Shown: one piece after another, positions 3,269 to 61,608 of the stretch
How positions within the stretch are numbered: position 1 is the first letter of the stretch
How the letters are laid out: each line of letters opens with the position of its first letter
Source of the DNA: Comamonadaceae bacterium
GTDB lineage: Bacteria > Pseudomonadota > Gammaproteobacteria > Burkholderiales > Burkholderiaceae_C
Assembly: GCA_013297875.1 (NCBI GenBank)
Contig: JAAFIW010000002.1
Coordinates: 180,627-244,626, forward strand
Length of the DNA stretch: 64,000 bases
Reading direction: 5' to 3'
The notes under the pieces: generated by a model
What the model saw: only the letters and a program-made list of their open reading frames with translations
What the model was told of the DNA's origin: nothing
The model's database searches: none
Made by a program: the position numbers and the translations under genes

Positions 3269-3311
3269 GGGGGCAATTTTTGAATCAAAACAAACAAATG
3301 TGCACGTCCAG

Positions 3312-3353
3312 TTTGCTCAAGCAGCTATATATTTTGTAGCATTTTCACGATAG
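3312..3353. repeat. Copy (reverse orientation) of the dispersed ATAGCTGCTTGAGCAA repeat, with an AT-rich tail
   Basis: tttgctcaagcagctatatattttgtagcattttcacgatagc. The low-GC patch forms the 3' end of purN. Confidence 0.6.
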
Positions 3354-7576: not shown

Positions 7577-7590
7577 GCTGCAAGAAAACT

Positions 7591-7706
7591 TTGAACGCAG
7601 AGGACGCAAAGGTTACGCAGAGAGCGCAGAAAAATACCAAAGAGCAATCAAATTTTTGGCTGTTCTTTTGCGTCCTCTGCGAATCCTTTGCGTCCTCTGC
7701 GTTCAA
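7591..7706. repeat. 116-bp MITE-like element with a perfect 22-bp terminal inverted repeat TTGAACGCAGAGGACGCAAAGG
   Basis: Left end at 7591-7612, right end at 7685-7706 as the exact reverse complement. The same ends occur at 51267 and 51602. The ORF-track entry 7524-7724 is a translation of this element (FERRGRKGYAE). Confidence 0.65.
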
Positions 7707-7747
7707 AAAATGAACCCGCTTTAAACCCGTTCCCAAAAGGGCAAATC

Positions 7748-8860
7748 ATGGATTTCGATTTTTCTGACGACCAAGAGCAATTGCGTGACGCCGTGCGCAA
7801 GTGGGTGGACAAGGCCTACAACTTCGACCGCCGCCGTGCCGCTGCGCACGCGGGTGGCTTTGACCGGGCCACCTACGGCGAATTGGCCGAGCTGGGTCTG
7901 ACGGGTCTGTACATCGCCGAAGACCACGGAGGCATGGGCATGGGGCCGGTGGAGGGCATGGTGGTGATGGAAGAGCTGGGGCGCGGCATCACGCTGGAGC
8001 CGCTGGCGCAGAGCTTGATGGCAGGTGGCGTGATCAGCGGCTATGGCGGTGCTGATGCCAAAGCCTGGTTGCCCAAAATCGCCAGTGGTCAGGCCCTGGT
8101 GGTCTTGGCCGACCAGGAGCGCAAAGCGCGCTACCAAATTGCCGTTTGTGAAGCAAAAGCGGTAGTAGCCCTTGATAAATATGCTGTAACAGCTATCAAA
8201 AACATAGTGCCTGCGGGCGATCAGGCTGATGCGTTCCTGGTGCCGGCCATGCTGAACGGCGCGATGGCCTTGTTCCTCGTTGAACGCAATGCAAGCGGCG
8301 TCACCACCCGCGGATACGCCACGCAAGACGGCTCGCGCGCAGCCGATGTGCACCTGGTCAACGCACCAGCCACCCTGGTCACGCTGGACGGCCAGACCGC
8401 GCTGCAACATGCAGTCGACATCGGCATTGCTGCCACCTGCGCCTACGCCGTGGGCGTGATGGACAAGACCCTGGCCATCACCGTGGACTACATGAACACC
8501 CGCAAGCAGTTCGGCGTGGCCATCTCCACCTTCCAGGCCCTGCGCCACCGCGTGGCCGACGTGAAGATGCAGCTGGAACTGGCTCGCGGCATGAGCTACT
8601 ACGCCAGCCTGAAACTCAACGCCCCCGCCGCCGAACGCCAAAGCGCCATGGCCCGAGCCAAGTACCAACTGGGCCAATCGATGCGTTTTGTCGGCCAGCA
8701 GGCGGTGCAGCTACACGGCGGCATCGGCGTGACCGACGAATACATCGTCAGCCACTATTTCAAGACCCTCACCCAGCTGGAAATGACATTTGGCGACAGC
8801 CTGCACCACCTGGGGCAGGTCAGCGAGCGCATGCAGGAGACGGCTGGGGTGTTTGCTTGA
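7748..8860 (+). CDS. Acyl-CoA dehydrogenase (PimD-like small subunit type)
   Basis: ATG at 7748 (MDFDFSDDQEQL). The C-terminal QLHGGIGVTDEY motif fits. It carries an in-frame AT-rich insertion at about 8145-8212. Confidence 0.8.
   Translation: MDFDFSDDQEQLRDAVRKWVDKAYNFDRRRAAAHAGGFDRATYGELAELGLTGLYIAEDHGGMGMGPVEGMVVMEELGRGITLEPLAQSLMAGGVISGYGGADAKAWLPKIASGQALVVLADQERKARYQIAVCEAKAVVALDKYAVTAIKNIVPAGDQADAFLVPAMLNGAMALFLVERNASGVTTRGYATQDGSRAADVHLVNAPATLVTLDGQTALQHAVDIGIAATCAYAVGVMDKTLAITVDYMNTRKQFGVAISTFQALRHRVADVKMQLELARGMSYYASLKLNAPAAERQSAMARAKYQLGQSMRFVGQQAVQLHGGIGVTDEYIVSHYFKTLTQLEMTFGDSLHHLGQVSERMQETAGVFA
8145..8212. repeat. In-frame AT-rich insertion inside the acyl-CoA dehydrogenase gene, possibly a degenerate dispersed-repeat copy
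   Basis: gtttgtgaagcaaaagcggtagtagcccttgataaatatgctgtaacagctatcaaaaacatagtgcc encodes AVCEAKAVVALDKYAVTAIKNIV. Its GC content contrasts sharply with the surrounding gene. Confidence 0.45.
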
Positions 8861-10017: not shown

Positions 10018-10959
10018 TTGCGTTTGCTGCGGTTTTTGTTGGGTTGTGCGCTGGCGGCGGCGCTGCTGTGGTGGCTGCTGCGGGGTGTCGATACTTCGCT
10101 TTTCGCCCAGCAATTGCGCGCCCTCCCCATCTGGCTCTGGGTCGCTGCGCCGCTGGGTTTGTTTGCCAGCTACGGCTTGCGCGCCGCGCGGGTGCGCAGC
10201 GAGTTGGGCGCGGTGCAGCCTGTTCGGTGGCTGGATGCGCTGCAGGTAACCCTGATTCACAACGCCGCAGTGAACCTGATTCCGATGCGCGGTGGCGAAT
10301 TGGCCTACCCCTACCTGGTGCATAAAAAATTGGGCATCTCGCCCGCTGAATCGGTGGCCAGTTTGCTGTGGATGCGGCTACAAGACCTGTTGGTGCTCAC
10401 CACCCTGGGTTTGATGCTTTTTCTGCCACTAGCCCATATAAAACGTGCTGGGGCAGCTATTATTTTTATAGTGATTGCCGCCCTGTTGATCACCGGCTTG
10501 CGGCGCTATGCCAGCCTGCACGGTGCGCGCTGGCGCGCCAGCCGCACCGCATCGCCGGGCTGGCGTGGCCGCCTGCGCGGCTGGCTGCTGCCGGTGCTGG
10601 CTGCTTTGGCCGACGGTGCGCGCCACAGCTGGGCCAGCTGGTTGTATTGCATCGCCAACTGGTGCCTAAAGCTGCTGGTGATCGCCGCCATCCTGCAAGC
10701 GGCCGGTGCCTTGCCGCTGGGGGTAGGGCTGCAGGGCGCGCTGGGCGGCGAGCTGGCGGCGCTGCTGCCCATCCAGGGGCCGTCGGGCCTGGGCACGTAT
10801 GAGGCCGGGGTGTGGGCCGGGGTGGCGCTGGCCGAGTCGCCAGCAGCGTCTTTGCCGGTGGCGGCTTTGCTGGCGCACGGGTTTATTTTTGCCACGGCGG
10901 TGCTGGCCGGGGTGGTGGCGTGGTTGATGATGGTGTGGAGGGGTTCACGCCGAGCGTAG
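10018..10959 (+). CDS. Flippase-like/lysylphosphatidylglycerol-synthase-TM-region (UPF0104) family membrane protein
   Basis: 313-aa polytopic membrane protein with a TTG start. Call is from overall architecture, not a diagnostic motif. It contains an in-frame AT-rich patch at 10426-10478 (ctagcccatataaaacgtgctggggcagctattatttttatagtgattgcc). Confidence 0.5.
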   Translation: MRLLRFLLGCALAAALLWWLLRGVDTSLFAQQLRALPIWLWVAAPLGLFASYGLRAARVRSELGAVQPVRWLDALQVTLIHNAAVNLIPMRGGELAYPYLVHKKLGISPAESVASLLWMRLQDLLVLTTLGLMLFLPLAHIKRAGAAIIFIVIAALLITGLRRYASLHGARWRASRTASPGWRGRLRGWLLPVLAALADGARHSWASWLYCIANWCLKLLVIAAILQAAGALPLGVGLQGALGGELAALLPIQGPSGLGTYEAGVWAGVALAESPAASLPVAALLAHGFIFATAVLAGVVAWLMMVWRGSRRA

Positions 10960-11034: not shown

Positions 11035-11295
11035 ATGTCCCAAGTCACCATCTACCTCCAACCCAGCACCCTGGAAGCGGCCAAATCTGCTGCAGCCAAG
11101 GCGCAGCTGTCGGTCAGCCAGTGGTTTGCGCAATTTGCGCTGGCTGAGGAGCGCAAAAGCAGCTGCAGCTGGAAAGCATTTCTGGATCAGCTTGACAGCA
11201 CGCATGGCCAGGCTTCAAAAGACGGGCTGGACTTTTTGCTGGGCACTGAGCGTTACGCCGATCTGGCACCGCAGCGCGAGCGGGAGTCGTTTTGA
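11035..11295 (+). CDS. vapB: Type II antitoxin (VapB-like)
   Basis: 86 aa, good Shine-Dalgarno, overlaps the downstream PIN gene by 4 nt. Confidence 0.65.
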   Translation: MSQVTIYLQPSTLEAAKSAAAKAQLSVSQWFAQFALAEERKSSCSWKAFLDQLDSTHGQASKDGLDFLLGTERYADLAPQRERESF

Positions 11296-11693
11296 AGTAT
11301 TTGCTGGATACCGACATCCTGATCTACATCAGCAAGCAGGCGGGCAACTGCCTGGCCCATCTGGAAAAGCTGCCCGACAGCAGCGTGGCGATCAGCAGTG
11401 TGAATGTATTTGAGCTCGAATACGGCATTGCCCGCTCCACCAGCCCCGCGCGAGCACAAGCTTTTCTGTTGGCGCTGCAAGCCCGGTTTGTGGTGCTGCC
11501 GTTTGACGTTGTTGCTGCCACCCACGCGGGCCGCATCAGGGCGCAATTGCGGCTGTCGGGTGACCCGATTGGTGCCTATGACTTGCAACACGCGGGCATT
11601 GCGCTGGCGAACGACTTGATATTCGTGACCCGTAACACGCGGGAATTTGCGCGTGTGCCGGGTCTGCGGCTGGAAAACTGGTTTGATGCGTAA
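11292..11693 (+). CDS. vapC: PIN-domain toxin VapC
   Basis: MKYLLDTDILIY...VFELEYG...FVTRNTREF gives the PIN acidic residues. Confidence 0.8.
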   Translation: MKYLLDTDILIYISKQAGNCLAHLEKLPDSSVAISSVNVFELEYGIARSTSPARAQAFLLALQARFVVLPFDVVAATHAGRIRAQLRLSGDPIGAYDLQHAGIALANDLIFVTRNTREFARVPGLRLENWFDA

Positions 11694-11817
11694 GGACGTG
11701 CTTGATGCGTAAGGACGTGCGCAAGCTGGCGTTAGCGCCTTCCCCCGGCAGGGGAAGGAGCAAAAGACAGGGGTCCGGCAATCGCAACACTGAATTCCGC
11801 GTAGTCACTACGAAATC

Positions 11818-11870
11818 AATAGCTGCTTGAGCAATATTCACATGGGCTACAGGCCAATTCGGCTTAAATC
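11818..11870. repeat. Dispersed repeat copy (AATAGCTGCTTGAGCAAT ... CATGGGCTACAGGCCAATTCGGCTTAAATC)
   Basis: Long form of the repeat family that is also seen at 18236, 29555, 45934, 46151, 52635 and elsewhere. Confidence 0.65.
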
Positions 11871-11897
11871 AACAGCCTAAAAAACCTAAAATCCGCC

Positions 11898-12938: not shown

Positions 12939-12961
12939 CCGGCTGGCCAAGCAAACAAGGC

Positions 12962-13046
12962 ACGTCATTCCCGCGCAGGCGGGAATCCAGGTTCGCGATG
13001 CCACTGCACGCAAGCGCTGGATTCCCGCCTGCGCGGGAATGACAGA
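12962..13046. repeat. dRS3-like inverted repeat pair (ATTCCC-N8-GGGAAT)
   Basis: gtcATTCCCGCGCAGGCGGGAATccag at 12967-12986 and ctggATTCCCGCCTGCGCGGGAATgac at 13021-13040, in inverted orientation. The ORF-track peptides containing RLRGND are translations of this repeat. Confidence 0.65.
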
Positions 13047-13049
13047 TCG

Positions 13050-14615
13050 TTGAAGGTTGGAGGGGTGGCACATTCAGTCAGCCGGGGCCTGGGTTGGCTG
13101 GTGTTCGCCGCCATCGCCGCGCTCACCGCCTGGCGTTTCTGGCTGATTGAGCACACCGGCATCTCGCTGTATGTCGACGAGGCTTATTACTGGGGCTGGG
13201 CGCAGCACCTGGCCTGGGGCTACTACTCCAAGCCGCCGCTGGTGGCCTGGTTGATTGCGGCCAGCACCGCGCTGTTTGGCAACGGCGTGCTGGGTGTGAA
13301 AGCGCTGGCGATGCTGCTATACCCGGCCACCGCGGGTGTGCTGTATCTGCTGGGCCGCGACCTGTTCAATGAACGATGTGGAAACGCGCTGGCGCAGCGC
13401 GTGGGCCTGGTGGCGGCGCTGCTGTTTGCCAGCTCGTTCATGGTGGGTTTGCTGGGCTTGTTTGTGTCAACCGACTCCCTGCTGGTGCTGTGCTGGGCGC
13501 TGGCGGCATGGTGCTGGTGGCGGGCGTTGCACAGCGATCGTCTGCTGTGGTGGGTGGCTTGCGGCGCGGCGCTGGGGCTGGGGCTTTTGTCCAAATACAC
13601 GATGGCGGCGTTTGCGGCCACGGCGCTGTATAGCCTGTGGGCGCATCGCTTGCCAGACGGTCGGCCGCTGTGGCGCACACCCGGCCCCTGGCTTGCCGCC
13701 GCCGTGGCGCTGGCGCTGTTTGCGCCGCACCTGGTGTGGAACTGGCACAACGGCATGCCCACCCTGCGCCATACGGCGGAGATCACCGCCACCGGCATTC
13801 GCAGCGGCGGCTGGGCGTCGGTGGGGGAGTTTTGGGTGGGGCAGTTGTTGATGCTGGGGCCTGTGCCCTTGCTGGTACTCGGTATCTGCTCCCTCCCCCG
13901 CTGGGGGAGGGCGGGGGTGGGGGCAAGCGCGCTACCACCTTCAGAAACCCCTCCCAAACCCAACCCCATCCCCTACCTCCTCGCCCTGGCCCTGCCGCTG
14001 CTGGCCGTCACCACCGCGCAATCGTTTCGCGCCCAGTCCAATCTGAACTGGGCAGCCCCGGCCTACGTCGCCATCAGCCTAGTGTTTGCCGCCTGGGCCT
14101 GCGGCGCATTGAACAAATCCCATCCGCGTTGGCTGGCTGCCACCCTGGCCGTGAATGCTTTGCTGGTGGCCACGGTGTGCCACGCCGCCGACATCGCCCG
14201 CCTGCTCGGCCAGCCGCTGCCGACGAATACCGACGCCTTTGTGCGCATGCGCGGCTGGCACGAGGCGCTGCAATCCCTCAAACCCATCGCGGCCCAGCAC
14301 ACCGGGCTGCCGGTGTTGGGCGTGGGCCGCACGCTGCTGGCCCAAACCACCTACGAGTGGCGCAGCCTGGGCACGCAGCCTGTGGCCTGGAACCCTGCAC
14401 AGCATGCCGACGACCAGTACCAGCTCACCACCGACCTGCAGAAATCGCTCGGACAAGACCTGCTGCTGGTCGTGCAAGGCCCGGTGCCGCCCGACCTGGC
14501 TCAGCGCTTTGCATCGGTGGACTTGCTGGGCCAGGTGACCGTGGGCACCGCACCCCGGCGGTACCTGACGATCACGCTGTGGCGGGCACGTGGGTTTAAA
14601 GGCTATGTGTTGTAA
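13050..14615 (+). CDS. Glycosyltransferase family 39 (ArnT/PMT-like undecaprenyl-phosphate-sugar transferase)
   Basis: 521-aa polytopic protein. LYVDEAYYWGWAQHLAWGYYSKPPL is the ArnT-family N-terminal signature. The annotated start is TTG and the true start may lie slightly downstream. Confidence 0.75.
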   Translation: MKVGGVAHSVSRGLGWLVFAAIAALTAWRFWLIEHTGISLYVDEAYYWGWAQHLAWGYYSKPPLVAWLIAASTALFGNGVLGVKALAMLLYPATAGVLYLLGRDLFNERCGNALAQRVGLVAALLFASSFMVGLLGLFVSTDSLLVLCWALAAWCWWRALHSDRLLWWVACGAALGLGLLSKYTMAAFAATALYSLWAHRLPDGRPLWRTPGPWLAAAVALALFAPHLVWNWHNGMPTLRHTAEITATGIRSGGWASVGEFWVGQLLMLGPVPLLVLGICSLPRWGRAGVGASALPPSETPPKPNPIPYLLALALPLLAVTTAQSFRAQSNLNWAAPAYVAISLVFAAWACGALNKSHPRWLAATLAVNALLVATVCHAADIARLLGQPLPTNTDAFVRMRGWHEALQSLKPIAAQHTGLPVLGVGRTLLAQTTYEWRSLGTQPVAWNPAQHADDQYQLTTDLQKSLGQDLLLVVQGPVPPDLAQRFASVDLLGQVTVGTAPRRYLTITLWRARGFKGYVL

Positions 14616-14658
14616 GCCCCTTTTTTGAACAAATTGGCTTAACGTGCAGTATCCACAG

Positions 14659-14689
14659 GCTCAAGCAGCTATGTTTTGTATAGCAAACC
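14659..14689. repeat. Dispersed repeat copy (reverse orientation, AT-rich tail)
   Basis: gctcaagcagctatgttttgtatagcaaacc. Confidence 0.55.
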
Positions 14690-16460: not shown

Positions 16461-19160
16461 ATGCTCCGTGAAGGCCAATCCCCCGTCGTGCTGCGTGCCG
16501 ACTATCAACCCCCTGCGTGGTGGATCGACACCGTCGATCTCACGTTTGATCTAGACCCCGCCAAAACCCGCGTGCTCAACCGCATGCGGATTCGTCGCAA
16601 CCCGGACATGCCAGCCCAGGCGCTGAAGCTCGATGGTGATGAGCTGAACCTGGCGCGCGTGATGGTCAATGGCGCGGGGACCTCGTTCAAGATGGAAGGC
16701 AGCCAGCTGGTGCTAGAGAATCTGCCGGAGGGCCATGAGCCGGTGGATCTGGAAATTTTCACCACCTGCAACCCGGTCAAAAACACCAAGCTGATGGGTT
16801 TGTATGTCAGCAACGACTCGTTTTTTACGCAGTGCGAGGCCGAGGGTTTCCGGCGCATCACCTACTTTTTAGACCGGCCGGATGTGATGGCCAGCTTCAC
16901 CGTGACCTTGCGGGCGGACAAAAAGGCCTACCCGGTGCTGCTGTCCAACGGCAACCTGGAAAGCGCGGGCGAATTGGACGATGGCAGGCACTTTGCCAAG
17001 TGGGTAGACCCGCACAAAAAGCCCAGCTACCTGTTTGCGCTGGTGGCCGGCAACCTGGTGTGCCGCGAGCAGCGCATTCGCTCGCGGGCGGGCAAAGACC
17101 ATTTGCTGCAGGTGTTTGTGCGCGCGGGTGACCTGGACAAGACCGAGCACGCGATGAACTCGCTGATGGCCAGCGTGGCCTGGGACGAGGCGCGCTTTGG
17201 GCTGCCGCTGGACCTGGAGCGCTTCATGATCGTGGCGACCAGCGACTTCAACATGGGCGCAATGGAAAACAAGGGCCTGAACATCTTCAACACCAAGTTT
17301 GTGCTGGCCAGCCAGGCCACGGCGACAGACGCTGACTTTTCCAATATTGAAAGCGTGGTGGGCCACGAATACTTTCACAACTGGACCGGCAACCGCGTGA
17401 CCTGCCGCGACTGGTTTCAGCTGTCGCTCAAAGAAGGCTTGACGGTGTTCCGCGACCAGGAATTCAGCCAGGATTTGTGTGCCGAAGCGTCGGCCCGCGC
17501 CGTCAAACGCATTGAAGACGTGCGCGTGCTGCGCACCGCCCAGTTCCCCGAAGACGCGGGCCCAATGTCGCACCCCGTGCGGCCCGACCAGTATGTGGAG
17601 ATCAACAATTTCTACACCGTGACGGTGTACGAAAAAGGCGCAGAAGTCGTGCGCATGATGCAGACGCTGGTGGGAACTGACGACGACCCTTTGGGTCGGG
17701 CAGGTTTCGCCAAAGGCATGACGCTGTACTTTGAGCGCCACGACGGCCAGGCCGTGACCTGCGACGACTTTGCCCAGGCCATTGCCGACGCCAACCCCAG
17801 CTCGCAACTGGCCCAGCTGCTGCCCCAGTTCAAGCGCTGGTACAGCCAGGCCGGCACGCCGCGCGTGCAGGCCACGGGCGTGTACGACGCGGTGGCGCAG
17901 ACCTACGCGCTCACGCTGGCGCAAAGCTGTCCTGCGACCGCCGGCCAGGCGGACAAGCAGCCGTTTGTCATCCCCATCGCACTCGGTTTGGTCGGCACAG
18001 CCGGCCAGGAACTCACCGCTGCATGCACCCATGTGCTCACCCAAGCCACAGAAACCTTGAACTTTGACGGCATCAGCCAAGAGCCCGTGCCCTCGTTGCT
18101 GCGCGGATTCAGCGCCCCGGTGATCCTGGCGCTGGACTACACCGACGCACAGCTGCTGACCCTGCTGGCGCATGACACCGATGCCTTCAACCGCTGGGAA
18201 GCCGGCCAGCGTTTGGCCCTTCGTATGGCTTGCAGCGCTATTAATTCAATAGCTGCTTCAGCAAGTAATACATGGGCGGATGGCACTTTTTCCTTGAATT
18301 CCGGGTTTGTGGAGGCCATGCGCGCCGTTTTGCGCCACCCCACGCTGGACGCCGCCTTCAAAGAGCTGGTGCTCACCCTGCCGTCTGAAACCTATATCGC
18401 CGAGCAGCTGGACGTGGTCGACCCGCAGCGCATCCACGCCGTGCGCGAGGCCATGCGCGAGCAGTTGGCTGTGGCGCTGCAGGCCGACTGGCAGTGGGCC
18501 TACGAGCAGCATGCGAACACCGGTGCCTATGTGCCCGACGCCACCTCGTCGGGCCGCCGCGCGCTGGCCGGCATGGCGCTGTCGCAGCTGTGCCTGGTAG
18601 CCCGCAGCACGGGTGATGCGGTGTGGCCCGGCAAAACCTACCAGCGCTTCAAAGACGCCGGCAACATGACCGACCGCTTCAACGCGCTGACCGCCCTGGT
18701 TTCCAGCGGCCACGCGCTGGCGGCACCGGCGCTGGCCCGCTTTCACGAGCTGTTCAAAGACGAGCCGTTGGTACTGGACAAGTGGTTCGCCCTGCAAGCC
18801 GGTGCCAGCGACCGCGCGGGCCACGTGCTGCCCGCCGTCAAACAACTGCTCAAGCACCCCGACTTCAACATCAAAAACCCCAACCGCGCCCGCAGCCTGA
18901 TCTTCAGCTACTGTAGCGGCAACCCCGGCGGCTTTCACCGTGCCGATGCCGCAGGCTATGTGTTCTGGAGCGAGCGCGTGATTGAACTCGACGCCTTCAA
19001 CCCCCAGGTGGCCGCCCGCCTGGCGCGCGCGCTGGATCGGTGGAAGAAGCTGGCTGAGCCGTATCGCAGCGCGGCGCGTGAAGCCATTGCGCGGGTGGCG
19101 GCGAAGACCGATTTGAGCAACGATGTGCGCGAAGTCGTCTCGCGTGCGCTTGCCGAATGA
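16461..19160 (+). CDS. pepN: Aminopeptidase N
   Basis: GAMENKGLNIFN, the HEYFHNWTGNRVTCRDWFQLSLKEGLTVFRDQEF (HEXXH...E) zinc site and full M1 architecture. Confidence 0.9.
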   Translation: MLREGQSPVVLRADYQPPAWWIDTVDLTFDLDPAKTRVLNRMRIRRNPDMPAQALKLDGDELNLARVMVNGAGTSFKMEGSQLVLENLPEGHEPVDLEIFTTCNPVKNTKLMGLYVSNDSFFTQCEAEGFRRITYFLDRPDVMASFTVTLRADKKAYPVLLSNGNLESAGELDDGRHFAKWVDPHKKPSYLFALVAGNLVCREQRIRSRAGKDHLLQVFVRAGDLDKTEHAMNSLMASVAWDEARFGLPLDLERFMIVATSDFNMGAMENKGLNIFNTKFVLASQATATDADFSNIESVVGHEYFHNWTGNRVTCRDWFQLSLKEGLTVFRDQEFSQDLCAEASARAVKRIEDVRVLRTAQFPEDAGPMSHPVRPDQYVEINNFYTVTVYEKGAEVVRMMQTLVGTDDDPLGRAGFAKGMTLYFERHDGQAVTCDDFAQAIADANPSSQLAQLLPQFKRWYSQAGTPRVQATGVYDAVAQTYALTLAQSCPATAGQADKQPFVIPIALGLVGTAGQELTAACTHVLTQATETLNFDGISQEPVPSLLRGFSAPVILALDYTDAQLLTLLAHDTDAFNRWEAGQRLALRMACSAINSIAASASNTWADGTFSLNSGFVEAMRAVLRHPTLDAAFKELVLTLPSETYIAEQLDVVDPQRIHAVREAMREQLAVALQADWQWAYEQHANTGAYVPDATSSGRRALAGMALSQLCLVARSTGDAVWPGKTYQRFKDAGNMTDRFNALTALVSSGHALAAPALARFHELFKDEPLVLDKWFALQAGASDRAGHVLPAVKQLLKHPDFNIKNPNRARSLIFSYCSGNPGGFHRADAAGYVFWSERVIELDAFNPQVAARLARALDRWKKLAEPYRSAAREAIARVAAKTDLSNDVREVVSRALAE
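18236..18303. repeat. Dispersed repeat copy inserted in-frame inside pepN
   Basis: gcgctattaattcaatagctgcttcagcaagtaatacatgggcggatggcactttttccttgaattccggg is translated as ...ACSAINSIAASASNTWADGTFSLNSGF... inside the 899-aa PepN. Confidence 0.6.
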
Positions 19161-19201
19161 CGAGATATGACCTCGCGGCCTGTACGCAGACACCACCGGC
19201 C

Positions 19202-19303
19202 CGTCATTCCCGCGAAGGCGGGAATCCAGCGGTCGCGCCGCGTCGCCCGATGCCATGAGCCAAGTACCTCGCGCCTGGATTCCCGCCTACGCGGGAATGA
19301 CGA
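19202..19303. repeat. dRS3-like inverted repeat pair
   Basis: ATTCCCGCGAAGGCGGGAAT at 19206-19225 and ATTCCCGCCTACGCGGGAAT at 19279-19298, in the pepN-fbp intergenic region. Confidence 0.6.
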
Positions 19304-19353
19304 TCTGGGGCTGGTAGCTATTCAGGTACGTCATTGACCAAACAAGGAACAAC

Positions 19354-20364: not shown

Positions 20365-20429
20365 TTCCACCGATACCGGAGTCCATGGCCACTTGCTATG
20401 TTATTTATAGCTACTCGTGCCTGTCCAGT

Positions 20430-20945
20430 GTGCACGTTAGGAACCTCTGCATAAGTCCCTGCGGAACTGTGGCGTGTGGATCGGGATGGGATGCTAGCCC
20501 GCATATTTGTACGCAGCAAAAGGACTCGACACCCACGGCATCGTTTTGGCGGGCGCAGGGTCGCACGCCCCTGCATCCCGCGAAAACGCGCCGTGGGTGC
20601 CGCCACGGTGAAATATGTGGGCAAGGCGTCTTTTCGCAGCCAATAGAGGTGCTATTGGCAAGAGAAACAACGTGGCAGACCGCCCGAGGCCACACGATCA
20701 CAGACCGCAAGGACTTATGCAGAGGTTCCCTTGCCGTATTTGGATCGAAAACCGGCAAAAGAGAGGCTGGCAGCGACTCTGAAGGAACCTCTGCAAAACC
20801 CCTGACGGCCAGCCCGACCGCAGCCTCGGGCGCATCGCGGCGTTGAAAAACTCACCAATAGCAATGCTATTGGTGAGTTTTTCGCCTAGCGCTGCATCCC
20901 GATCTGCATTCGTTCTGGCTCGCCATGAGTTTTGCAGAGGTTCCT
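20430..20945. repeat. Structured repetitive element(s) with GGAACCTCTGCA...TGCAGAGGTTCC ends and perfect internal hairpins
   Basis: ggaacctctgcataagtccctgcgg at about 20440 and ccgcaaggacttatgcagaggttccc at about 20707. A second unit ggaacctctgcaaaa...ttttgcagaggttcc lies at about 20780-20945. Hairpins gccaatagaggtgctattggc and caccaatagcaatgctattggtg are present. It is related to the module at 53495-53665. The ORF-track ORFs in this span are translations of the repeat. Confidence 0.55.
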
Positions 20946-20989
20946 TAAGCGACTCAAGCGGCCCACACCGCTGCCCTCAGGCTGACAGC

Positions 20990-22078
20990 TTATAAGGGGC
21001 TGGTGCTTCGGCACAGCACGCCGCTGCAAGCGCTAGGTTTGAAGTACACCTCGCGGGCGGTGGTACCGACGATCACGCTGAACCAATAAACAAAGCCTGC
21101 TACACCCTCGGTGTTGGCTTGGCTGACGAGATTCGCGGCACTGGTAGCGGGCGCATTGGTTTTCCACTCAAACCTGGACGACTGCGATGTGTCCTTGACG
21201 TAGATGTTGCGAAACCCGCTCACCGGCTCGCCGCTGAACACATTGAGACCGCTGAATTTGTAGCCGTCTCTGCCTTCGGCATTGGCCTGGGCCAGCAGGG
21301 CATCGTGGCCGGCGGGTTCGGCGCCCAGGCGGTAGGTGTATTTGGCGTTGCCGCTGGCTGACTTCATGTAGATATTCCCGAACGTATAGGGGCCCACATA
21401 CAAAAAGCCCTTGTCACCCTGGGCGTTGGCCTGGAGTGCGAAGGCAGATACTGTGGTGACCTGTGGTAGTACTTCATAGGTATAGGTCGGGGCATTGCTC
21501 TCTTTGACAAAAATCGTGCCTTCGGTGGTCGGGCCCCAGAACTCGAAGCCTTTCGCGCCCTGGGCATTGAGCTGCGACAGGAAGGTGGCGGCGGTCGTTG
21601 GAGCGTCCAGCACTTCATAGCTGAAGGTGGTGTCACTGTCTTTTGAATAAAAGTTGAAAGCCGTGCCGCCCAGGATGTTGGGGCCGAAGTAGTTGAAGCC
21701 CTTGGCACCCTGAGCGTTCAGTTGGGTCAGCAGCGCGGCGCGCGTGTTGGTGTTGGGCTGCGACTCGTAGCTGGCGGTGGTGCTGGCGGCCGGTGCAGGA
21801 GCGCTTGGCGCAGGTGTGCTGGGTGCGGGAGCGCTTGGTACAGGTGCGCTCGGTGCGGGCGCACTGGGGGCAGGAGCGCTGGGTGCGGGCGCGCTCGGGG
21901 CGGGCGCGCTCGGGGCGGGCGCGCTCGGGGCGGGAGCACCGGAGGCGGGTGGTGGTACCGGTGTTGCTGGACTGTCGTCACCGCCACCGCAGGCAGCCAA
22001 GCCGGCCACGCTGGCGGTCAGCGCAAAGTAAATAGTCAACTGGGCCAATCGCTGGCGTGTCAATTCATGGGTGAACAT
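20990..22078 (-). CDS. Lipoprotein with a Pro/Ala-rich (PAPSA)n linker and five ~40-aa internal repeats
   Basis: Start MFTHELTRQRLAQLTIYFALTASVAGLAAC (lipobox LAAC). There are 15-bp tandem DNA repeats at about 21780-21960. Repeated modules run LLTQLNAQGAKGFNYFGP... / FLSQLNAQGAKGFEFWGP... / FALQANAQGDKGFLYVGP.... Confidence 0.6.
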   Translation of the reverse strand: MFTHELTRQRLAQLTIYFALTASVAGLAACGGGDDSPATPVPPPASGAPAPSAPAPSAPAPSAPAPSAPAPSAPAPSAPVPSAPAPSTPAPSAPAPAASTTASYESQPNTNTRAALLTQLNAQGAKGFNYFGPNILGGTAFNFYSKDSDTTFSYEVLDAPTTAATFLSQLNAQGAKGFEFWGPTTEGTIFVKESNAPTYTYEVLPQVTTVSAFALQANAQGDKGFLYVGPYTFGNIYMKSASGNAKYTYRLGAEPAGHDALLAQANAEGRDGYKFSGLNVFSGEPVSGFRNIYVKDTSQSSRFEWKTNAPATSAANLVSQANTEGVAGFVYWFSVIVGTTAREVYFKPSACSGVLCRSTSPL

Positions 22079-29532: not shown

Positions 29533-29554
29533 CCTGAATAGGTGCTATCGAAAA

Positions 29555-29609
29555 AATAGCTGCCTGAGCAAGTAATCCCTGGGCTGATGGCCGATTTGAC
29601 CTGAAAGCG
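29555..29609. repeat. Dispersed repeat copy (AATAGCTGCCTGAGCAAGTAAT CCCTGGGCTGATGGCCGATTTGACCTGAAAGCG)
   Basis: Lies immediately upstream of the flotillin-ATPase-PLD operon. Confidence 0.65.
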
Positions 29610-38920: not shown

Positions 38921-38950
38921 CGCGTTGTGCTTGAGCGATGGCATGTAGCG

Positions 38951-39029
38951 GCAGAGTTTGGGTCAGTGGCCCCCACCTGAAACTGTCAAAGGGCCAGAAA
39001 TCGGCGGGAACCACTGCCCCAAACTCTGC
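38951..39029. other. 19-bp inverted repeat (1 mismatch) around a 41-nt loop, immediately 3' of the PLD gene and at the left edge of the low-GC island
   Basis: gcagagtttgggtcagtgg at 38951-38969 and ccactgccccaaactctgc at 39011-39029. No U-tract follows, so it is either an atypical terminator or a recombination/boundary structure. Confidence 0.4.
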
Positions 39030-39309
39030 GGATGGAGTTGATGGGGCGCGCAATGGATTTTGAATCGCCTGAGACGGCAGATCCGGTGCGCTTGCAGTCG
39101 GTCACCCGGAAATCGAGATTAGGCGGTCTGAGCCATAAGCGACGAAAGCTGTACGTCCGCTTTGGGCAAGTTGCAGTCTTCCGTCAGTGACTGCTTTCAG
39201 GTTGCATGCTCAGGGATTGCACCTCTTAGCTTGGGCGGGAGATTCGTGCAGAGCATCCTAAATGGTTCACCTGTCGAAGTGCTAGTATGGCCAACCAAGG
39301 GAGTCAGAC

Positions 39310-40725: not shown

Positions 40726-40742
40726 ACAAACGGAGGTGGCAG

Positions 40743-43378: not shown

Positions 43379-43614
43379 ACTTAGCGCTAGCAAGGTGCCG
43401 AGCACGACCGCTGGGGCCTTTCATCAAGACAGCGGCAATCTACCTAGGCGCCTAACGGAGAAAGCTGACTAGTCTGAAGTCATATTGCGTGTGTCAGCGT
43501 CGATCAGCAAAACGCCTTTTGTTGTGTCTCTGCTTGGCGGGCACTAATGGCCTTTGTTGTCATGTAACTCGGGTAAAAAGACGTGGTGAGTTACGAATTC
43601 CGTGGAGGCTCCTT

Positions 43615-45760: not shown

Positions 45761-45933
45761 CTTCCGCTTTGGGCTCGGAACCAGCCGGTCACTGCGAAAA
45801 CCTGAATGCCCGTTTTGGGTCTTTAACGGCCATGAAGCCTGACAACGAGGCAGGCCCGCTTTCGAGGAACACAGCGGACTTTACAAACCACCGTGGGGAA
45901 TGATCGAGTGACCGACGAAGTCGCTATTTCTTT

Positions 45934-45990
45934 AGTAGCTGCTTGAGCATATCCCCTGGGGGTTAGAGGCGTATTTGGCATAAGTGTTAA
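45934..45990. repeat. Dispersed repeat copy (AGTAGCTGCTTGAGCAT...CCTGGGGG...)
   Basis: Sits just left of DR2. Confidence 0.55.
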
Positions 45991-46022
45991 GTGGGAGCAA
46001 CCTAGTTATCCAGTCGCAGACG

Positions 46023-46108: not shown

Positions 46109-46150
46109 CCGAAGCCAGTCACGGACACACTATGTTCTTTGCCTGCTCTT

Positions 46151-46210
46151 AAATCAATAGCTGCTTGAGCAATGTATCTCTGGGCTGTTGGCCGATTTGG
46201 CTCATATTCC
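46151..46210. repeat. Dispersed repeat copy (AAATCAATAGCTGCTTGAGCAATGTATCTCTGGGCTGTTGGCCGATTTGGCTC)
   Basis: Sits just right of DR2. Near-identical to the copies at 11818 and 29555. Confidence 0.65.
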
Positions 46211-47450: not shown

Positions 47451-47719
47451 GGCTCAGCAACGCTTGCTGGGCTTTCTGTTTGGTCAGCCGGGCCGCAGCT
47501 AGTACGCCAATGAGTTATTGGCCTGGCAGGTGGCCCATTTACGCCGAACTGTGTGGCATTGCATGCAAAACGGTTGGCCTTTTGGGTACCTCTTGCAACT
47601 CCACCGGGGCTTGGGATGGATTCCATACCCAGGACTGGCATTTGCTGCGCAAAACAAGCTCACGTGCGCTACCAGAGCGCACAACCAGCTATTAAAACAA
47701 GAGCGTTGATCGATACAGC

Positions 47720-49644: not shown

Positions 49645-49965
49645 AACGGCCCACTTTTGAGTCAAATCAGGCAAACGTGCGCACTGGGAGCGCACGAATA
49701 GCTACTGATTTGGTAGCGAATCGAGGCCCGGTGACATGCGTAGATGTCGGGGGTTGCCCGACAGCAACTCACTTTCTTTTGCGTCGCCAAAAGAAAGTAA
49801 GCAAAGAAAAGGCGACCCGCAGTCTGGGTCCCTACGCTTCGCTGCGGGCACCTTGCGGTGCTCAAACCCAGTGGGGTCACGTGCAAACTCGCCTGCGGCT
49901 CAAACAAGCACGTGCCCTGATCCACTGGCTTTTGCGCTCCTCAGCCCAGCCTGAACGGGTTTCTG
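49645..49965. repeat. About 320-bp repetitive element (copy A), present in inverted orientation at about 53401-53880
   Basis: Reverse-complement matches include gcacgtgccctgatccactggcttttgcgctcctcagc at 49908-49945 versus 53447-53484, and a long stretch ...ggcgacccgcagtctgggtccctacgcttcgctgcgggcaccttgcggtgctcaaacccagtggggtcac versus 53684-53760. The ends resemble the dispersed repeat. Confidence 0.6.
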
Positions 49966-50045
49966 TCATTTTTTTCAGCGTTTTATGCCTTTAGTGTAGG
50001 CCCAGATAGCACAGATAGCTATGATTTACGTAGCAAAGAAAACAC

Positions 50046-52605: not shown

Positions 52606-52634
52606 TTCGGCATGACAGGGGCGCTATAAATAGA

Positions 52635-52690
52635 GTAGCTGCTTGAGCAGTTTTTACCTGGGCGAGTGGGCGATTTGACCTGAAAACATG
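52635..52690. repeat. Dispersed repeat copy (AGTAGCTGCTTGAGCAG TTTTTACCTGGGCGAGTGGGCGATTTGACCTGAAAACATG). A partial dRS3-like half-site follows at 52708-52719.
   Basis: Near-identical architecture to the copy at 29555. Confidence 0.65.
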
Positions 52691-53400: not shown

Positions 53401-53880
53401 GTTTTCCGTTCGGGCCGAGTGGGGAACCCCCGCAAACAGAACCCCTTTCAGGCTGGGCTGAGGAGCGCAAAAGCCAGTGGATCAGGGCACGTGCGGGGGA
53501 ACCTCTGCACAAGTCCTTGCGGCCTGTGATCGCGCGGTCTCGGGCGGTCCGCTGCGTTGCTTTTATTGCCAATAGCACCGCTATTGGCTGCAAAAAGACG
53601 CCTTGCATCCCATCCCGATCCGCGCGCCACAGTTCCACAAGAACTTATGCAGAGCTTCCCTCTGAGCCGCAGGCGAGTTTGCACGTGACCCCACTGGGTT
53701 TGAGCACCGCAAGGTACCCGCAGCGAAGCGAAGGGCCCAGACTGCCGGGTCGCCTTTCTTTTTCTTACTTTTCTTTGGCGACGCAAAGAAAAGGCAGGCG
53801 CTTGTCGGGCGACCCCGACATCTACGCACGCCACTGAGCCCTGTTTTGCTACTGAATTAGTAGCTGCTTGTGCTCTACCA
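53401..53880. repeat. Copy B of the about 320-bp element (inverted relative to copy A), interrupted by a nested ~170-bp GGAACCTCTGCA...TGCAGAGCTTCC module and ending in a dispersed-repeat copy (AGTAGCTGCTTGTGC at 53859)
   Basis: The nested module at 53495-53665 (gggggaacctctgcacaagtccttgcgg ... ccaatagcaccgctattgg ... ttatgcagagcttccc) is related to the element at 20440-20732. The ORF-track ORFs 53397-53837 and 53384-53638 are its translations. Confidence 0.6.
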
Positions 53881-53928
53881 GGTTGCAAGTTAGCTAGATT
53901 TGACTCAAAAATTGGAACGGAAATCCCC

Positions 53929-55082: not shown

Positions 55083-55955
55083 TCACATCCACAGCGCCCG
55101 CCAAACCATGACCGGCACATCCCAGCCGGTGATGCGCACCCGCTGGCGGTCGCTGCGCCAGCGAATCGCTTCGATTTTGTCCAGGATGCGCAGACCGCCT
55201 TGCACCACCAGGCGCAACTCCCAACCGGCCCGGCCGGGCACCTGGTGCACCAGTTTTGAGCCATTTTGCATGGTAGCCCTTGCAGATCCTGCTAGGGAAG
55301 CTATCAAAACAGGAGTGGCTGGGTGTTCATTCAAGGCGCTCAGGTCGGTGTGCGGCAGGCCATGGGCGGCGCAGTCAGCCAGCGGCAGGTAGTAGCGGCC
55401 ACGGGGAATGTCCACGCTGATGTCTTGCCAGAAATTGATCAGTTGCAGCGCTGTGCAGATCGCGTCGCTGCGTTCCAGGGCTGTTTCGTCGCAGATGCCG
55501 TACAGGTGCAGCAGCAGGCGGCCGACCGGGTTGGCCGAGCGGCGGCAGTAGTCCAGCAGCTCGGCCTCGTCGCTATAGCCTTGCGCGGCGGCGGTTTTGT
55601 GCACGTCTTGGGTGAAGGCACTGAGCAAGTCGGCTAGCAGGGGCTGGGGCAGGTGGTGCTGGGCAATGGCGACCTGGAGCGGCGCAAACACATGGGGCCA
55701 GCGAGGGCTTGATCGGGGCGTTGGGGCGTAGCAAGCGGCCAGGTCGGCAGCAAATTCAGCCAGGTCGGCCAGGCGCTGGGCGGCGGGTGCATCGCCTTCG
55801 TCAGCGATGTCGTCGGCGGTGCGGGCAAAGCCGTAAATCGCGGCAATCGGAGCCCGCAAATGGGCGGGGCACAGCCACGACGCCACGGGGAAATTCTCGT
55901 AATGCTGGGCTAATTCGGCGCTTGCTGGGGAGTTGGGTTGGGTGCTCGGGTTCAC
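55083..55955 (-). CDS. Squalene/phytoene synthase family (HpnC-like presqualene diphosphate synthase)
   Basis: The YENFPVASWL N-terminus is characteristic of HpnC/HpnD. DxxxD motifs ARTADDIADEG. Confidence 0.75.
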   Translation of the reverse strand: MNPSTQPNSPASAELAQHYENFPVASWLCPAHLRAPIAAIYGFARTADDIADEGDAPAAQRLADLAEFAADLAACYAPTPRSSPRWPHVFAPLQVAIAQHHLPQPLLADLLSAFTQDVHKTAAAQGYSDEAELLDYCRRSANPVGRLLLHLYGICDETALERSDAICTALQLINFWQDISVDIPRGRYYLPLADCAAHGLPHTDLSALNEHPATPVLIASLAGSARATMQNGSKLVHQVPGRAGWELRLVVQGGLRILDKIEAIRWRSDRQRVRITGWDVPVMVWRALWM

Positions 55956-56033: not shown

Positions 56034-57218
56034 ATGTCCAAACCCTCTTTTTCAGGCATTCACCGCAGCCACATCTCCCTGCTGCTGGCCGCTGCCCTGC
56101 TGGCCGCCTGCAGCAAACCCGCCCCCACCGAAGAGCCGGTGCGCGCGGTGCGGGTGCTCACCGTGGGTGAGGCGCGTTTTGATGCAACCTACGAGTTTGC
56201 CGCCGAGGTGCGGGCGCGCACCGAGTCGCGCCTGGGCTTTCGGGTGGCCGGCAAGATCATTCGCCGCCAGGCCGAGTTGGGCCAGCGCGTGAAGGCGGGC
56301 CAGGTGTTGGCGCAGCTGGACCCGCAAGACTACAAACTGGCCGCCGACGCAGCCCAGGCCCAGGTGGCCGCCGCCGCCACCAACCGCGACCTGGCAGCAG
56401 CCGATTTCAAGCGCTTCAAAGAGCTGAAAGAGCAGAACTTCATCAGCGGCGCCGAGCTGGAGCGGCGCGAGAGCGTGCTGAAGGCCGCGCAGGCCTCGCT
56501 GCAGCAGGCACAGGCGCAGCTCTCGTCGCAAGGCAACCAGGCACGCTACACCAACCTGGTGGCCGATGTGTCGGGCGTGGTGACGGCCGTAGAGGCTGAG
56601 CCGGGCCAGGTGGTCACGGCCGGTACGCCGGTGGTGCGCATTGCGCAAGATGGGGTGCGCGACGTGGTGTTTTCAGTGCCCGAAGACAAGGTGGCGGCGA
56701 TTCGCGTGGGCTCGGATGTGGGTGTGCGCGTGTGGGCCGAGGCCTCGGCGCAAAAGGCCCAGCTGACTGGCAAGGTGCGCGAAGTGGCCGCCACTGCCGA
56801 CCCGGTGACCCGCACCTTCCCCATCAAGGTGGCACTCGACGCGGCGGCCAATTTGCCCCTGGGCTCCACCGTGTACGTGACGCCGCAGGCCTTGGGCGCT
56901 GCCGGTGCCCAGGTCATCAAGCTGCCCACCACGGCGCTGCGCCAGGAAAGTGGCAACACCACGGTGTGGGTGCTGGACAAAGCCAGCATGGCCTTGAAAG
57001 CACAGCCCGTCACCGTGGCCACTGCCGACGGCAACGAGGTGGTGATTGCCAGTGGCTTGCAGCCCGGCATGCTGGTGGTGTCGGCCGGTGTGCATGTGCT
57101 GCAGCCGGGGCAAAAAGTGACGATTTATCAAGAAAAGGGGGTATCAGCCCAGGTGAATACTGCTCAAGCAGCTACTAAACCTGTAGCAAGTGCTTCTGCC
57201 TCCGGCGCGGTGAAGTGA
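56034..57218 (+). CDS. Efflux RND transporter periplasmic adaptor subunit
   Basis: Lipobox LLAACS, coiled-coil hairpin and beta-barrel (HlyD-like) pattern. The C-terminal tail is encoded by a dispersed-repeat copy (57161-57176). Confidence 0.85.
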   Translation: MSKPSFSGIHRSHISLLLAAALLAACSKPAPTEEPVRAVRVLTVGEARFDATYEFAAEVRARTESRLGFRVAGKIIRRQAELGQRVKAGQVLAQLDPQDYKLAADAAQAQVAAAATNRDLAAADFKRFKELKEQNFISGAELERRESVLKAAQASLQQAQAQLSSQGNQARYTNLVADVSGVVTAVEAEPGQVVTAGTPVVRIAQDGVRDVVFSVPEDKVAAIRVGSDVGVRVWAEASAQKAQLTGKVREVAATADPVTRTFPIKVALDAAANLPLGSTVYVTPQALGAAGAQVIKLPTTALRQESGNTTVWVLDKASMALKAQPVTVATADGNEVVIASGLQPGMLVVSAGVHVLQPGQKVTIYQEKGVSAQVNTAQAATKPVASASASGAVK

Positions 57219-61382: not shown

Positions 61383-61473
61383 ATGCATCGGAACAAGGTG
61401 CTTCATTGCGCCGCCAAGCCCTCAAGGGTGCCTTGAGGCATCCCACTCATTACACCCAATCGCTCTCAATTCC

Positions 61474-61494
61474 ATAGCTGCCTCAGCAATGAAT
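61474..61494. repeat. Dispersed repeat core copy (ATAGCTGCCTCAGCAATGAAT) upstream of tRNA-Leu
   Basis: Variant of the ATAGCTGCTTGAGCAA core. Confidence 0.45.
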
Positions 61495-61608
61495 ACAAGG
61501 GCTGCAATCACGACGCATCGGTCAGATACATGCCGTTGGATAGTGCCAGTGCGTCCATCAGCGCCGCTGGTCACTCCGTCATCGCATAAAATACGCGGTT
61601 GCCTAAAA

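Follow-up and report, generated by a model that had tools for sequence, protein, structure and literature searches.

A ~69-nt AT-rich repeat family of Comamonadaceae with translated in-gene copies that leave protein length almost unchanged

Small interspersed repeats such as REP, ERIC, BOX and Rickettsia palindromic elements (RPE) account for a considerable share of many bacterial genomes, and the way most of them spread is unresolved. The uptake signal sequences (USS) of Pasteurellaceae and the DNA uptake sequences (DUS) of Neisseriaceae, whose cores are 9-12 bp long, are distributed genome-wide in both orientations, in intergenic as well as in coding DNA, where protein length is unchanged. 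Their dialects differ between lineages, they are conserved at orthologous sites, and their information profile shows a peak flanked by AT-rich sequence. Here, we analyzed a family of repeats of about 69 nt in a 64,000-nt stretch of a Comamonadaceae bacterium (assembly GCA_013297875.1, contig JAAFIW010000002.1, positions 180,627 to 244,626), which we refer to in full as the window. The reading that we tentatively put forward, with somewhat less than even confidence, is that these repeats form an old, AT-rich, REP-like family of Comamonadaceae that has been renewed chiefly by copying over existing DNA and not by insertion.

Several described repeats bear on this family. Two surveys of REP sequences (PMC3733652, PMC2817692) name in their main texts none of the Comamonadaceae genera that we searched for. 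Rickettsia palindromic elements (Ogata et al. 2000, as summarised in PMC10969869) are palindromes of ~100-150 bp that add a peptide segment to proteins. Tong et al. (2017; PMC5217627) reported a pair of motifs, ATAGCT(N)22CAAAAG, in Polaromonas naphthalenivorans CJ2 (125 copies, including 18 in genes and 34 between convergent genes) and the pair GCTTAT(N)5AAGCG in Acidovorax ebreus TPSY (114 copies); both were listed as "potential novel motifs" and counted, but left unexplained. Finally, the element BRE (Hot et al. 2011; PMC3110155) was described in Polaromonas, Acidovorax, Rhodoferax and Delftia, with some copies in coding sequences.

We searched the window for the core ATAGCTGCTTGAGCAA on both strands, allowing up to two mismatches. 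Ten matches were found against 0.03 expected, and none of 100 dinucleotide-preserving shuffles reached this number (Table 1). A preliminary description of this DNA had claimed a dispersed family with more than 10 copies in 64 kb; the family is real, and the copy coordinates given there are off by no more than a few bases. We used the 10 core-matched copies to build an nhmmer profile, which re-found all of them (E-values from 1e-19 to 3e-12) and added five diverged copies, one of them weak, as well as three partial units, for a total of ~15-18 units in the window. One of the copies described earlier, at 53859, does exist but is too diverged (GTAGCTGCTTGTGCTC) for the core search and was recovered by the profile only. 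The units present a mean GC-content of 45% relative to 60% for the window, confirming the low GC-content noted before. Their orientation is even (9 plus and 9 minus), and the cumulative GC skew rises monotonically throughout the window.

To define the anatomy of the unit, we anchored 156 non-identical copies on RTAGC, taken both from the window and from related genomes, and calculated the information at each position. Counted from the R of RTAGC, the unit begins sharply 16 nt upstream and ends sharply 52 nt downstream, and it follows the layout GCTAY-N7-RTAGCTGCTTGAGCA with a degenerate tail after it; the consensus is AATTGCTAY-N7-RTAGCTGCTTGAGCAGTATTTACAAGGGCTAnnGGCCnATTTGGCTTAAAA. The GCTAY arm begins 12 nt upstream of the core quoted in the preliminary description, which overlooked this arm and gave a size of 50-60 bp; the long form proposed there is complete at 29556 and 52635 but only partial at 46157. 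The GCTA arm is 85-100% conserved although it was not used to pick the copies, and the seven-nucleotide spacer and the tail are far freer. Because the arm is conserved while the spacer varies, the head can be described as two small palindromes, GCTA-N9-TAGC followed by CTGCT-TG-AGCAG. Of the 27 nt of this conserved head, ~20 positions come close to 2 bits, and the tail becomes progressively degenerate (...GGGCT..GGCC.ATTTG.CTTAAAA). Within RTAG, the TAG is invariant and the first base is A in 127 of the 156 copies and G in the other 29. In a minority of units, the hairpin type, the head and the 3' GATTTGACTCAAAA are retained, with a GC-rich 7-bp stem between them (49647-49723, 47683-47708 and 20390-20441 in the window). 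The copy found in the pepN gene of Acidovorax (locus L098) is of this kind, with the hairpin AGCGCTT-N7-AAGCGCT, and the stems of hairpin-type units are 7-8 bp long overall.

The ends of the consensus (AATTGCTAT... and ...GGCTTAAAA) are not mutually inverted, and terminal inverted repeats (TIRs) were thus not found. Likewise, the longest matches between the flanks of the units were distributed as in shuffled pairings, giving no sign of target-site duplications (TSDs); an apparent 9-nt flanking repeat at 29556 (TGACCTGAA) falls within this chance distribution and was rejected as a TSD. No transposase was found in the window. The family is not the end of an insertion sequence (IS), a possibility that had been raised for the motif, nor is it a MITE (miniature inverted-repeat transposable element) of the TIR/TSD type. 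Promoter, sigma-54 and IHF-site readings of the consensus were considered by eye and none fitted.

We then considered the copies located inside genes. The preliminary description had the copies as mostly intergenic and, although the majority are, at least 4 of the ~15 window copies lie in frame within Pfam-supported genes: pepN, an acyl-CoA dehydrogenase gene (ACAD), the gene of an LPG_synthase_TM protein and the C-terminus of an HlyD-type adaptor. In related genomes, all 10 sampled in-gene copies were in Pfam-supported genes, and the host genes comprise dapF, purK, an enoyl-CoA hydratase gene (ECH), lnt, putA (two copies), gluQRS-like, rluB-like, pheT, acs-like and hsdR. Read in antisense, the consensus is open in one frame (...KPNRPVALVNTAQAAIKLIA), and the sense frame of the pepN copy requires the removal of the core TGA. 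Because the sense frame needs this TGA gone, TGA-bearing cores are absent from sense in-gene sites: 0 of 148 are found there and 25 are antisense in genes, against 5 of 11 TCA variants in sense in-gene sites (Fisher's exact test, p = 6e-7).

A clean insertion of the unit would add 23 residues to the encoded protein, and a net gain of 23 aa was seen at no examined site. Protein length showed no net change for ACAD (120 orthologues, all of 370-378 aa and ungapped at the site), purK (ungapped relative to Burkholderia 4e4t) and pheT (ungapped relative to E. coli 3pco). The other sites showed gains of 3 aa in putA (relative to 3haz), 5 aa in ECH (relative to the solved homologue 4hdt), 8 to 10 aa in pepN (relative to orthologues without the unit), 12 to 19 aa in dapF (relative to orthologues and to a solved homologue) and 36 aa in the gluQRS-like gene (relative to the solved homologue 1nzj). 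The unit-like DNA of ACAD encodes the native D-x-Y-x-V-x-A-x-K-x-I-V motif. In pepN, the ends of the unit overlay the native residues A-[IL]-x-x-I-A and D-G-x-x-x-L, and in dapF the unit end overlays the native beta-strand that precedes SMGNPH. In-gene copies swap native codons at near-constant protein length, and simple insertion therefore fails to explain the spread of the family.

The purK gene allowed us to follow this replacement across many orthologues. We obtained 80 purK loci (L103-L182) from metagenomes and measured the length of the segment from H.DGIL to YVGVL in 68 orthologues: it comprised 41 codons in 67 of them. Over the orthologous 69 nt, agreement with the unit consensus formed a continuum, from 15-24 of 69 positions in outgroups, which is the random level, through 28-34 and 38-45 up to 53 in the near-consensus copy. 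In a tree of the flanking protein sequence, the high-scoring orthologues all fall in one large clade, where they are interleaved with low-scoring sisters (scores of 42/28, 40/26, 40/20, 41/25 and 44/27). The unit-like patches are AT-rich within genes of 70-75% GC, and the unit score follows the depth of the local GC dip, which reaches 0.29 (r = 0.86), and not the GC-content of the whole gene (r = -0.20). Since the score follows the local dip rather than gene GC, we rejected codon usage as the cause of the gradient. This graded, interleaved and length-constant series therefore indicates that the unit-like AT-rich patch was gained or lost in place. The peptide generic to Comamonadaceae PurK (YEGNLPPALAAQAVAAAKSVA) matches the antisense peptide of the unit (FKPNRPVALVNTAQAAIKLIA) at 9 of 21 positions without gaps, and it is a possibility that the family was seeded by, or descended from, this segment of purK. 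A purK origin was rejected as a general account, because it does not explain the other length-neutral sites (ACAD, pheT, putA and the LPG synthase gene).

The copies are ancient and have been retained at orthologous sites. Within genomes, no pair of copies exceeds 88% identity and the medians range from 57% to 68%. In all syntenic comparisons (genomes 68-86% identical), the unit was found at the orthologous site in both genomes; no presence/absence polymorphism was observed at any compared site and, consequently, no empty intergenic site was obtained. Orthologous intergenic units are ~75-86% identical, relative to ~50% for the neighboring spacer where it can be aligned at all. Among window units, the one upstream of prfB has an orthologous copy in L095 and the one in the adaptor gene has an orthologous copy in L086. 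The family also presents genome dialects: C[AC]TGGGC in the window, CAAGGGCTG in the metagenome-assembled genome (MAG) JANOQJ01 and CTTGGACTA in others. Orthologous in-gene copies tend to carry the dialect of their own genome, as observed at three loci: pepN (window versus L096 and versus Acidovorax), the adaptor gene and ACAD (window and L100 versus L101). As a separate observation, differences between subfamilies often amount to inverted centers of small quasi-palindromes (CAAG/CTTG, GTATTTAC/GTAAATAC and the loops TCCCAGT versus TCTGGTA), for example between window positions 49690 and 47690 and between JANOQJ and JAYTPK loci; template switching within hairpins would produce differences of this kind.

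We scanned one genome per species for the exact pattern GCTAYN7RTAGCTGCYTSAGCA. At least 93 stretches carried the pattern, and all genomes among the matches listed were of Comamonadaceae type: several Polaromonas and Rhodoferax MAGs, two Comamonadaceae MAGs, Acidovorax delafieldii DSM 64, a Rhizobacter MAG and one Pseudomonadota MAG. Because the family recurs in Polaromonas-, Rhodoferax- and Acidovorax-type Comamonadaceae, it is neither specific to the window nor an IS end. The nearest genome found was the Comamonadaceae MAG JANOQJ01 (pepN 91% identical in amino acids and ~86% in nucleotides). The profile gave 200 matches in 634 kb of related loci, a density that is biased upwards because these loci were fetched for carrying a match; no unit was found in 21 kb of Polaromonas sp. 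JS666. Extrapolating from the density of the window, a genome of 4-5 Mb would carry on the order of one thousand copies. A full-text literature search returned no match to the core sequence. We rejected BRE as the same family: its sequence (TTTTTTTGGCCGCGGGCCGCCCAAGGCAAAAAAGCCCCC...) has a GC-content of 69%, forms tandem arrays and shares nothing with the unit.

The genomic context was determined for 173 copies with crude gene calls based on GC-content at third codon positions (GC3). Convergent spacers contained 32 copies, divergent spacers 13 and tandem spacers 61 (35 sense and 26 antisense), and 39 copies were deep within called genes, for an in-gene share of 20-25%; of the remaining 28, 22 at locus ends were unclassified and 6 were near gene ends. 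Most window units fill tight spacers at gene 3' ends, as the preliminary description had pointed out: the purN stop lies within a unit, two units start 8 and 14 nt past the stops at 29532 and 52605, and two others abut stops in antisense. The units are solitary, occur in both orientations and do not flank a transposase gene as pairs. The open reading frames (ORFs) of the window, and those enclosed by units in inverted pairs over ~0.7 Mb from relatives, revealed no Y1 transposase domain, whole genomes not having been scanned. The ORFs between inverted pairs, considered as possible RAYT or other transposase genes, encode a 2OG-Fe oxygenase, a PIN protein, an isochorismatase and unknowns.

Folding the long form as RNA, a check proposed earlier, gave no support to a structured RNA. 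On both strands, the folds of main-type units were not better than those of shuffled sequences (z from -0.2 to -1.1, with one at +1.7), and only the hairpin type folds notably (49647-49723, z = -2.9). The innermost pair of GCTAY/RTAGC showed no covariation among the 156 copies (76 TA, 51 CA, 21 TG and 8 CG), a candidate GGCY-N3-RGCC helix paired as frequently as column shuffles, and mutual information revealed solely couplings between neighbors or between subfamilies, such as CAAGGGCT with CTTGGACT. RNAalifold returned just three tiny helices. The sole match of the window in Rfam 15 at the gathering score was the tRNA-Leu, and the best unit had no match at E ≤ 1. We therefore rejected a known RNA family or a conserved secondary structure on the basis of Rfam, covariation and fold tests: the family is not a structured RNA, and a role as RNA is unlikely.

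Overwriting would account for in-frame, translated, codon-replacing copies that change protein length little or not at all. The many dispersed copies of the unit would serve as donors, with short matches anchoring ectopic gene conversion or templated patch repair, so that the unit sequence would be renewed and new copies recruited by overwriting, with clean 69-bp insertion playing little part. Selection on the protein would then retain only the tolerable mosaics. The data establish the anatomy, abundance, taxonomic spread, age, in-gene location, translation and length neutrality of the units and the in situ gradient at purK; we infer both this conversion mechanism and the manner of the first expansion of the family, and several points weigh against this reading. 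The evidence includes neither a conversion tract nor a donor-recipient pair. Copies of one genome resemble each other hardly more than they resemble copies of close relatives (window copies are 0.48 alike within their genome versus 0.50 relative to JANOQJ), and homogenization, if any, is slow or confined to the head. Moreover, conversion needs prior similarity and cannot by itself explain hundreds of original sites. The conservation of the head across genera and the higher conservation of the unit relative to the spacer fit purifying selection at least as well, the dialect evidence comes from three loci, and insertion followed by compensating deletion could likewise yield length-neutral copies; the context counts, for their part, inherit the crudeness of the GC3-based gene calls. 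Because homogenization is weak, conversion cannot account for the first expansion and the conservation of the head across genera fits protein binding equally well, two rival explanations, RAYT-type mobilization and a functional DNA signal, stay live. A broader claim, that a drive is turning existing DNA, including segments of essential genes (purK, pheT, putA and ACAD), into a 69-nt motif at constant length, may hold, although we consider it unlikely. Such an overwriting drive could consist of biased ectopic conversion from hundreds of donors, or of selection or uptake bias for a 27-bp head recognized by a protein.

Two of the rivals seem improbable to us. The family could be a non-autonomous element of the REP/REPIN type whose units are excised or copied, and then inserted, by a Y1 (HUH) transposase supplied in trans, for instance a RAYT, that would recognize the RTAG head and the palindrome, in which case in-gene copies would be ordinary insertions trimmed later by deletion. 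The order of RTAG head and palindrome, the 7-bp GC-rich stem of the hairpin type (z -2.9), the hairpin of the Acidovorax pepN copy and the lack of TIRs and TSDs all recall REPs, as do the high copy number, the bias towards 3' ends and convergent genes, the depletion between divergent genes and the genome-specific dialects; net insertions at some in-gene sites (dapF +12-19, gluQRS +36) also fit. However, neither the window nor the intervals between units in inverted pairs over ~0.7 Mb yielded a Y1 or other transposase (whole genomes not searched), the head is ATAG rather than GTAG in 127 of 156 copies, and the arms of the main subfamily are 4-5 bp long without a stable fold. Ordinary insertion also sits poorly with the lack of presence/absence polymorphism at syntenic sites and of near-identical copies, with the length neutrality of four of the eight examined in-gene copies (ACAD, purK, pheT and putA) and with a purK series graded in situ. 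The even orientation despite a monotonic GC skew argues against insertion of single-stranded DNA directed to the lagging strand, and the searched genera go unmentioned in the main texts of the REP surveys. We have equally little faith in a functional DNA signal, in which the head would be a putative site for a host protein (nucleoid, chromosome organization, or a receptor for DNA uptake or self-recognition) and copies would be both created and maintained by selection or molecular drive, possibly on the model of the uptake sequences of Neisseria and Haemophilus. Its attraction is that adjacent palindromes with invariant arms and a free spacer form the pattern of a dimer-binding site, that both orientations are equally common, and that coding-region copies leave protein length unchanged (ACAD, purK and pheT). 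The in situ gradient of an AT-rich patch in purK genes of 70-75% GC, the conservation of orthologous units above the adjoining spacer, the lineage dialects and the information peak at the head with AT-rich flanks point in the same direction. Nevertheless, a 69-nt unit with more than 40 bits in its head far exceeds any known uptake or nucleoid site, ~30 stepwise substitutions inside essential genes are hard to credit, and real insertions of 5-36 residues occur at several sites. The tail is shared despite its low information, which suggests common descent of whole units, and the material that we searched contains no binding-protein or competence data for these organisms.

The remaining rival, an element acting in mRNAs as a terminator, a processing or stabilizing site or a small RNA, strikes us as very improbable. 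Units do lie in tight operon spacers and directly past stop codons, and the hairpin type folds well, but main-type folds equal those of shuffles, covariation and Rfam matches at E ≤ 1 are lacking, and no T-run is found 3' of the unit. In addition, units in tandem spacers are sense in 35 cases versus antisense in 26, and many in-gene copies are antisense.

Table 1. Units of the family and other features of the window. Where a unit was matched by the core search, the position of the match is given (strand in parentheses for minus-strand matches).
Positions	Strand	Feature	Context	Found by	E-value
3276..3344	-	Unit, exact core	Fills the purN-cobS spacer; purN stop TAG 3325-3327 is the TAG of ATAGC	Core, 3313(-)	6e-15
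8140..8219	-	Diverged unit	In acyl-CoA dehydrogenase gene 7748-8860(+); antisense, in frame	Profile	2.9e-7
10423..10478	-	Diverged unit	In LPG_synthase_TM gene 10018-10959(+); antisense, in frame	Profile	1.5e-9
11803..11871	+	Unit, exact core	Between PIN-domain gene 11292-11693 and gene starting 11898	Core, 11819	
14620..14688	-	Unit	Between stop of gene 13050-14615 and prfB; antisense to both	Core, 14657(-)	
18233..18301	+	Unit	Within pepN 16461-19160; sense, in frame, translated AINSIAASASNTWADGTFSLN; core TGA changed to TCA	Core, 18249	4e-18
20390..20441	+	5' part of hairpin-type unit	Split at 20441 by 293-bp MITE-like element 20440-20732; 3' module appears to resume at ~20733-20755	Profile	0.49
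29540..29608	+	Best-scoring unit	Fills 93-nt spacer from SnoaL-like gene (stop 29532) to gene at 29626	Core, 29556	1e-19
45919..45987	+	Unit	End of low-GC island, directly before duplicated PLD gene fragment	Core, 45935	
46141..46209	+	Unit, exact core	Directly after PLD fragment; 69 nt upstream of gene 46278-47450	Core, 46157	
47683..47708	-	Partial hairpin-type unit ATAGCTGGTTGTGCGCTCTGGTAGCGCAC	Between convergent genes	Profile	0.28
49647..49723	-	Hairpin-type unit, GTAGCT...CGTGCGC-TCCCAGT-GCGCACG...GATTTGACTCAAAAG	One end of 320-bp element 49647-49966	Profile	4e-4
50012..50037	-	Partial unit GCTACGTAAATCATAGCTATCTGTGC	Directly upstream of gene 50046-51245	Profile	0.84
52619..52687	+	Unit	Begins 14 nt past stop of gene 51634-52605	Core, 52635	
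53843..53918	+	Diverged unit	One end of second 320-bp element copy 53436-53918, between convergent genes	Profile	1e-5
55250..55323	-	Probable degenerate unit, weak match	In squalene/phytoene synthase gene 55083-55955(-); sense	Profile	0.036
57123..57191	-	Unit	In 3' end of HlyD-type adaptor gene 56034-57218(+); antisense; encodes C-terminal ...QVNTAQAATKPVA	Core, 57160(-)	
61458..61526	+	Unit, core variant TTCAGCA/CTCAGCA	Between dehydrogenase gene 60480-61382 and tRNA-Leu 61609-61695	Core, 61474	
12959-12990, 13009-13052, 19191-19237, 19269-19313, 51373-51410, 52700-52731		Second repeat family	GC-rich palindromic GTCATTCCCGCGCAGGCGGGAATCCAG		
7590-7707, 51266-51318, 51560-51602		Third repeat family	42-53-nt TTTGAACGCAGAGGACGCAAAGGTTACGCAGAG...		
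20440-20732, 20784-20946, 53495-53662		MITE-like elements	TIRs GGAACCTCTGCA...TGCAGAGGTTCC		
49647-49966, 53436-53918		320-bp composite element	Two inverted copies		
33030-46200		Low-GC stretch	GC 0.52-0.57 from ~38 kb		
38718-38810, 46023-46115		93-nt 3' fragment of PLD gene, duplicated	88% identical; second copy bracketed by two units		
60348-61577		1.2-kb segment	3-hydroxyisobutyrate-dehydrogenase-like gene and unit, between RND pump gene and tRNA-Leu		
54655-55050		~163-bp direct repeats	92% identical, with CACAGAGACACAGAGG motifs and inverted complement		
21777-21956, 27536-27794		Tandem arrays	15-nt and 24-nt periods in long ORFs		

The window contains several other repeats (Table 1). 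Members of the second family often form inverted pairs in intergenic spacers and resemble classical REPs, and inverted copies of the third family are up to 98% complementary. The two copies of the 320-bp composite element are 74-97% identical by segment, with a hairpin-type unit at one end and a separate module as the inner 250 bp. Units had earlier been taken as the termini of this element, which holds for one end only: a diverged unit is present there in each copy, but the other end is not a unit. A shorter relative of the MITE-like elements is inserted in the second copy. The best local alignment between BRE and the 320-bp element lies at the 95th percentile of random windows and is not significant. 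The two PIN-domain (toxin-like) genes, 11292-11693 and 53007-53390, are each followed by a unit or by a 320-bp element. The low-GC stretch resembles an island of defence or mobile genes. Its products are a 1728-aa DUF3686/AAA ATPase, a PLD-like protein, a Ser/Thr kinase and a UvrD-like helicase, and it has two large ORFs with no match in Pfam. At the syntenic JANOQJ01 locus (L086), a gap of ~27 bp stands in place of the 1.2-kb segment next to tRNA-Leu. The tandem arrays probably encode repetitive low-complexity proteins.

The family offers a clean handle on the spread of repeats, as it is abundant in a well-sampled bacterial family. Its in-gene copies lie in conserved genes whose ancestral state and length are known, and insertion and overwriting can therefore be separated site by site. 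If overwriting proved true, repeats would propagate by recombination or drive, a mode of spread distinct from transposition and involving a motif several times longer than known uptake or nucleoid signals, and proteins would have an additional route of peptide replacement. The units also produce local AT-rich patches, spurious ORFs and alignment artefacts in the annotation of Comamonadaceae, and they mark rearrangement breakpoints.

The family shares with uptake sequences the traits listed above for USS and DUS; unlike them, it has a head of 27 bp in a unit of 69 bp and insertions at some sites. Rickettsia palindromic elements resemble the family in being selfish-looking repeats that are in frame and translated in unrelated housekeeping genes, with no transposase known for either, but the present unit is 69 nt long and asymmetric, usually overlays native residues (net change of 0 to +19 aa) and is graded in the purK series. 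The motifs of Tong et al. (2017) share with the family the ATAGCT head, a comparable host family and copy number, the placement at gene ends and between convergent genes and some in-gene copies. Furthermore, the pepN unit of Acidovorax has precisely GCTTAT-N5-AAGCG as its hairpin. Both motif pairs are absent from the window, which therefore carries a different dialect; the two motifs probably represent sister dialects of the family.

The closest parallels are the REP, BIME and REPIN sequences of Enterobacteria, Pseudomonas and Stenotrophomonas. Like them, the family is short, high-copy and mostly extragenic, with copies at gene 3' ends and in convergent spacers, and it has an (R)TAG head with a palindrome, neither TIR nor TSD, and species-specific dialects. 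REPs are imperfect palindromes of 20-40 nt that form a stem-loop and carry a GTAG or CGTC end tag, whereas the main type of the family has mini-palindromes of 4-5 bp without a stable hairpin, a head that is mostly ATAG and an asymmetric 69-nt unit whose long tail is not palindromic. Stems of 7-8 bp do occur in the hairpin type, and the head is GTAG in 29 of 156 copies. REP sequences are accompanied by a cognate RAYT gene that usually lies between copies of them; none was found for the family in the window or in ~0.7 Mb from relatives, whole genomes being unscanned. REPs are extragenic, but 20-25% of the copies of the family are inside genes, and all 14 checked genes are Pfam-supported. Within REP-like repeats, the family is distinctive in that a large fraction of its copies are translated and length-neutral in genes.

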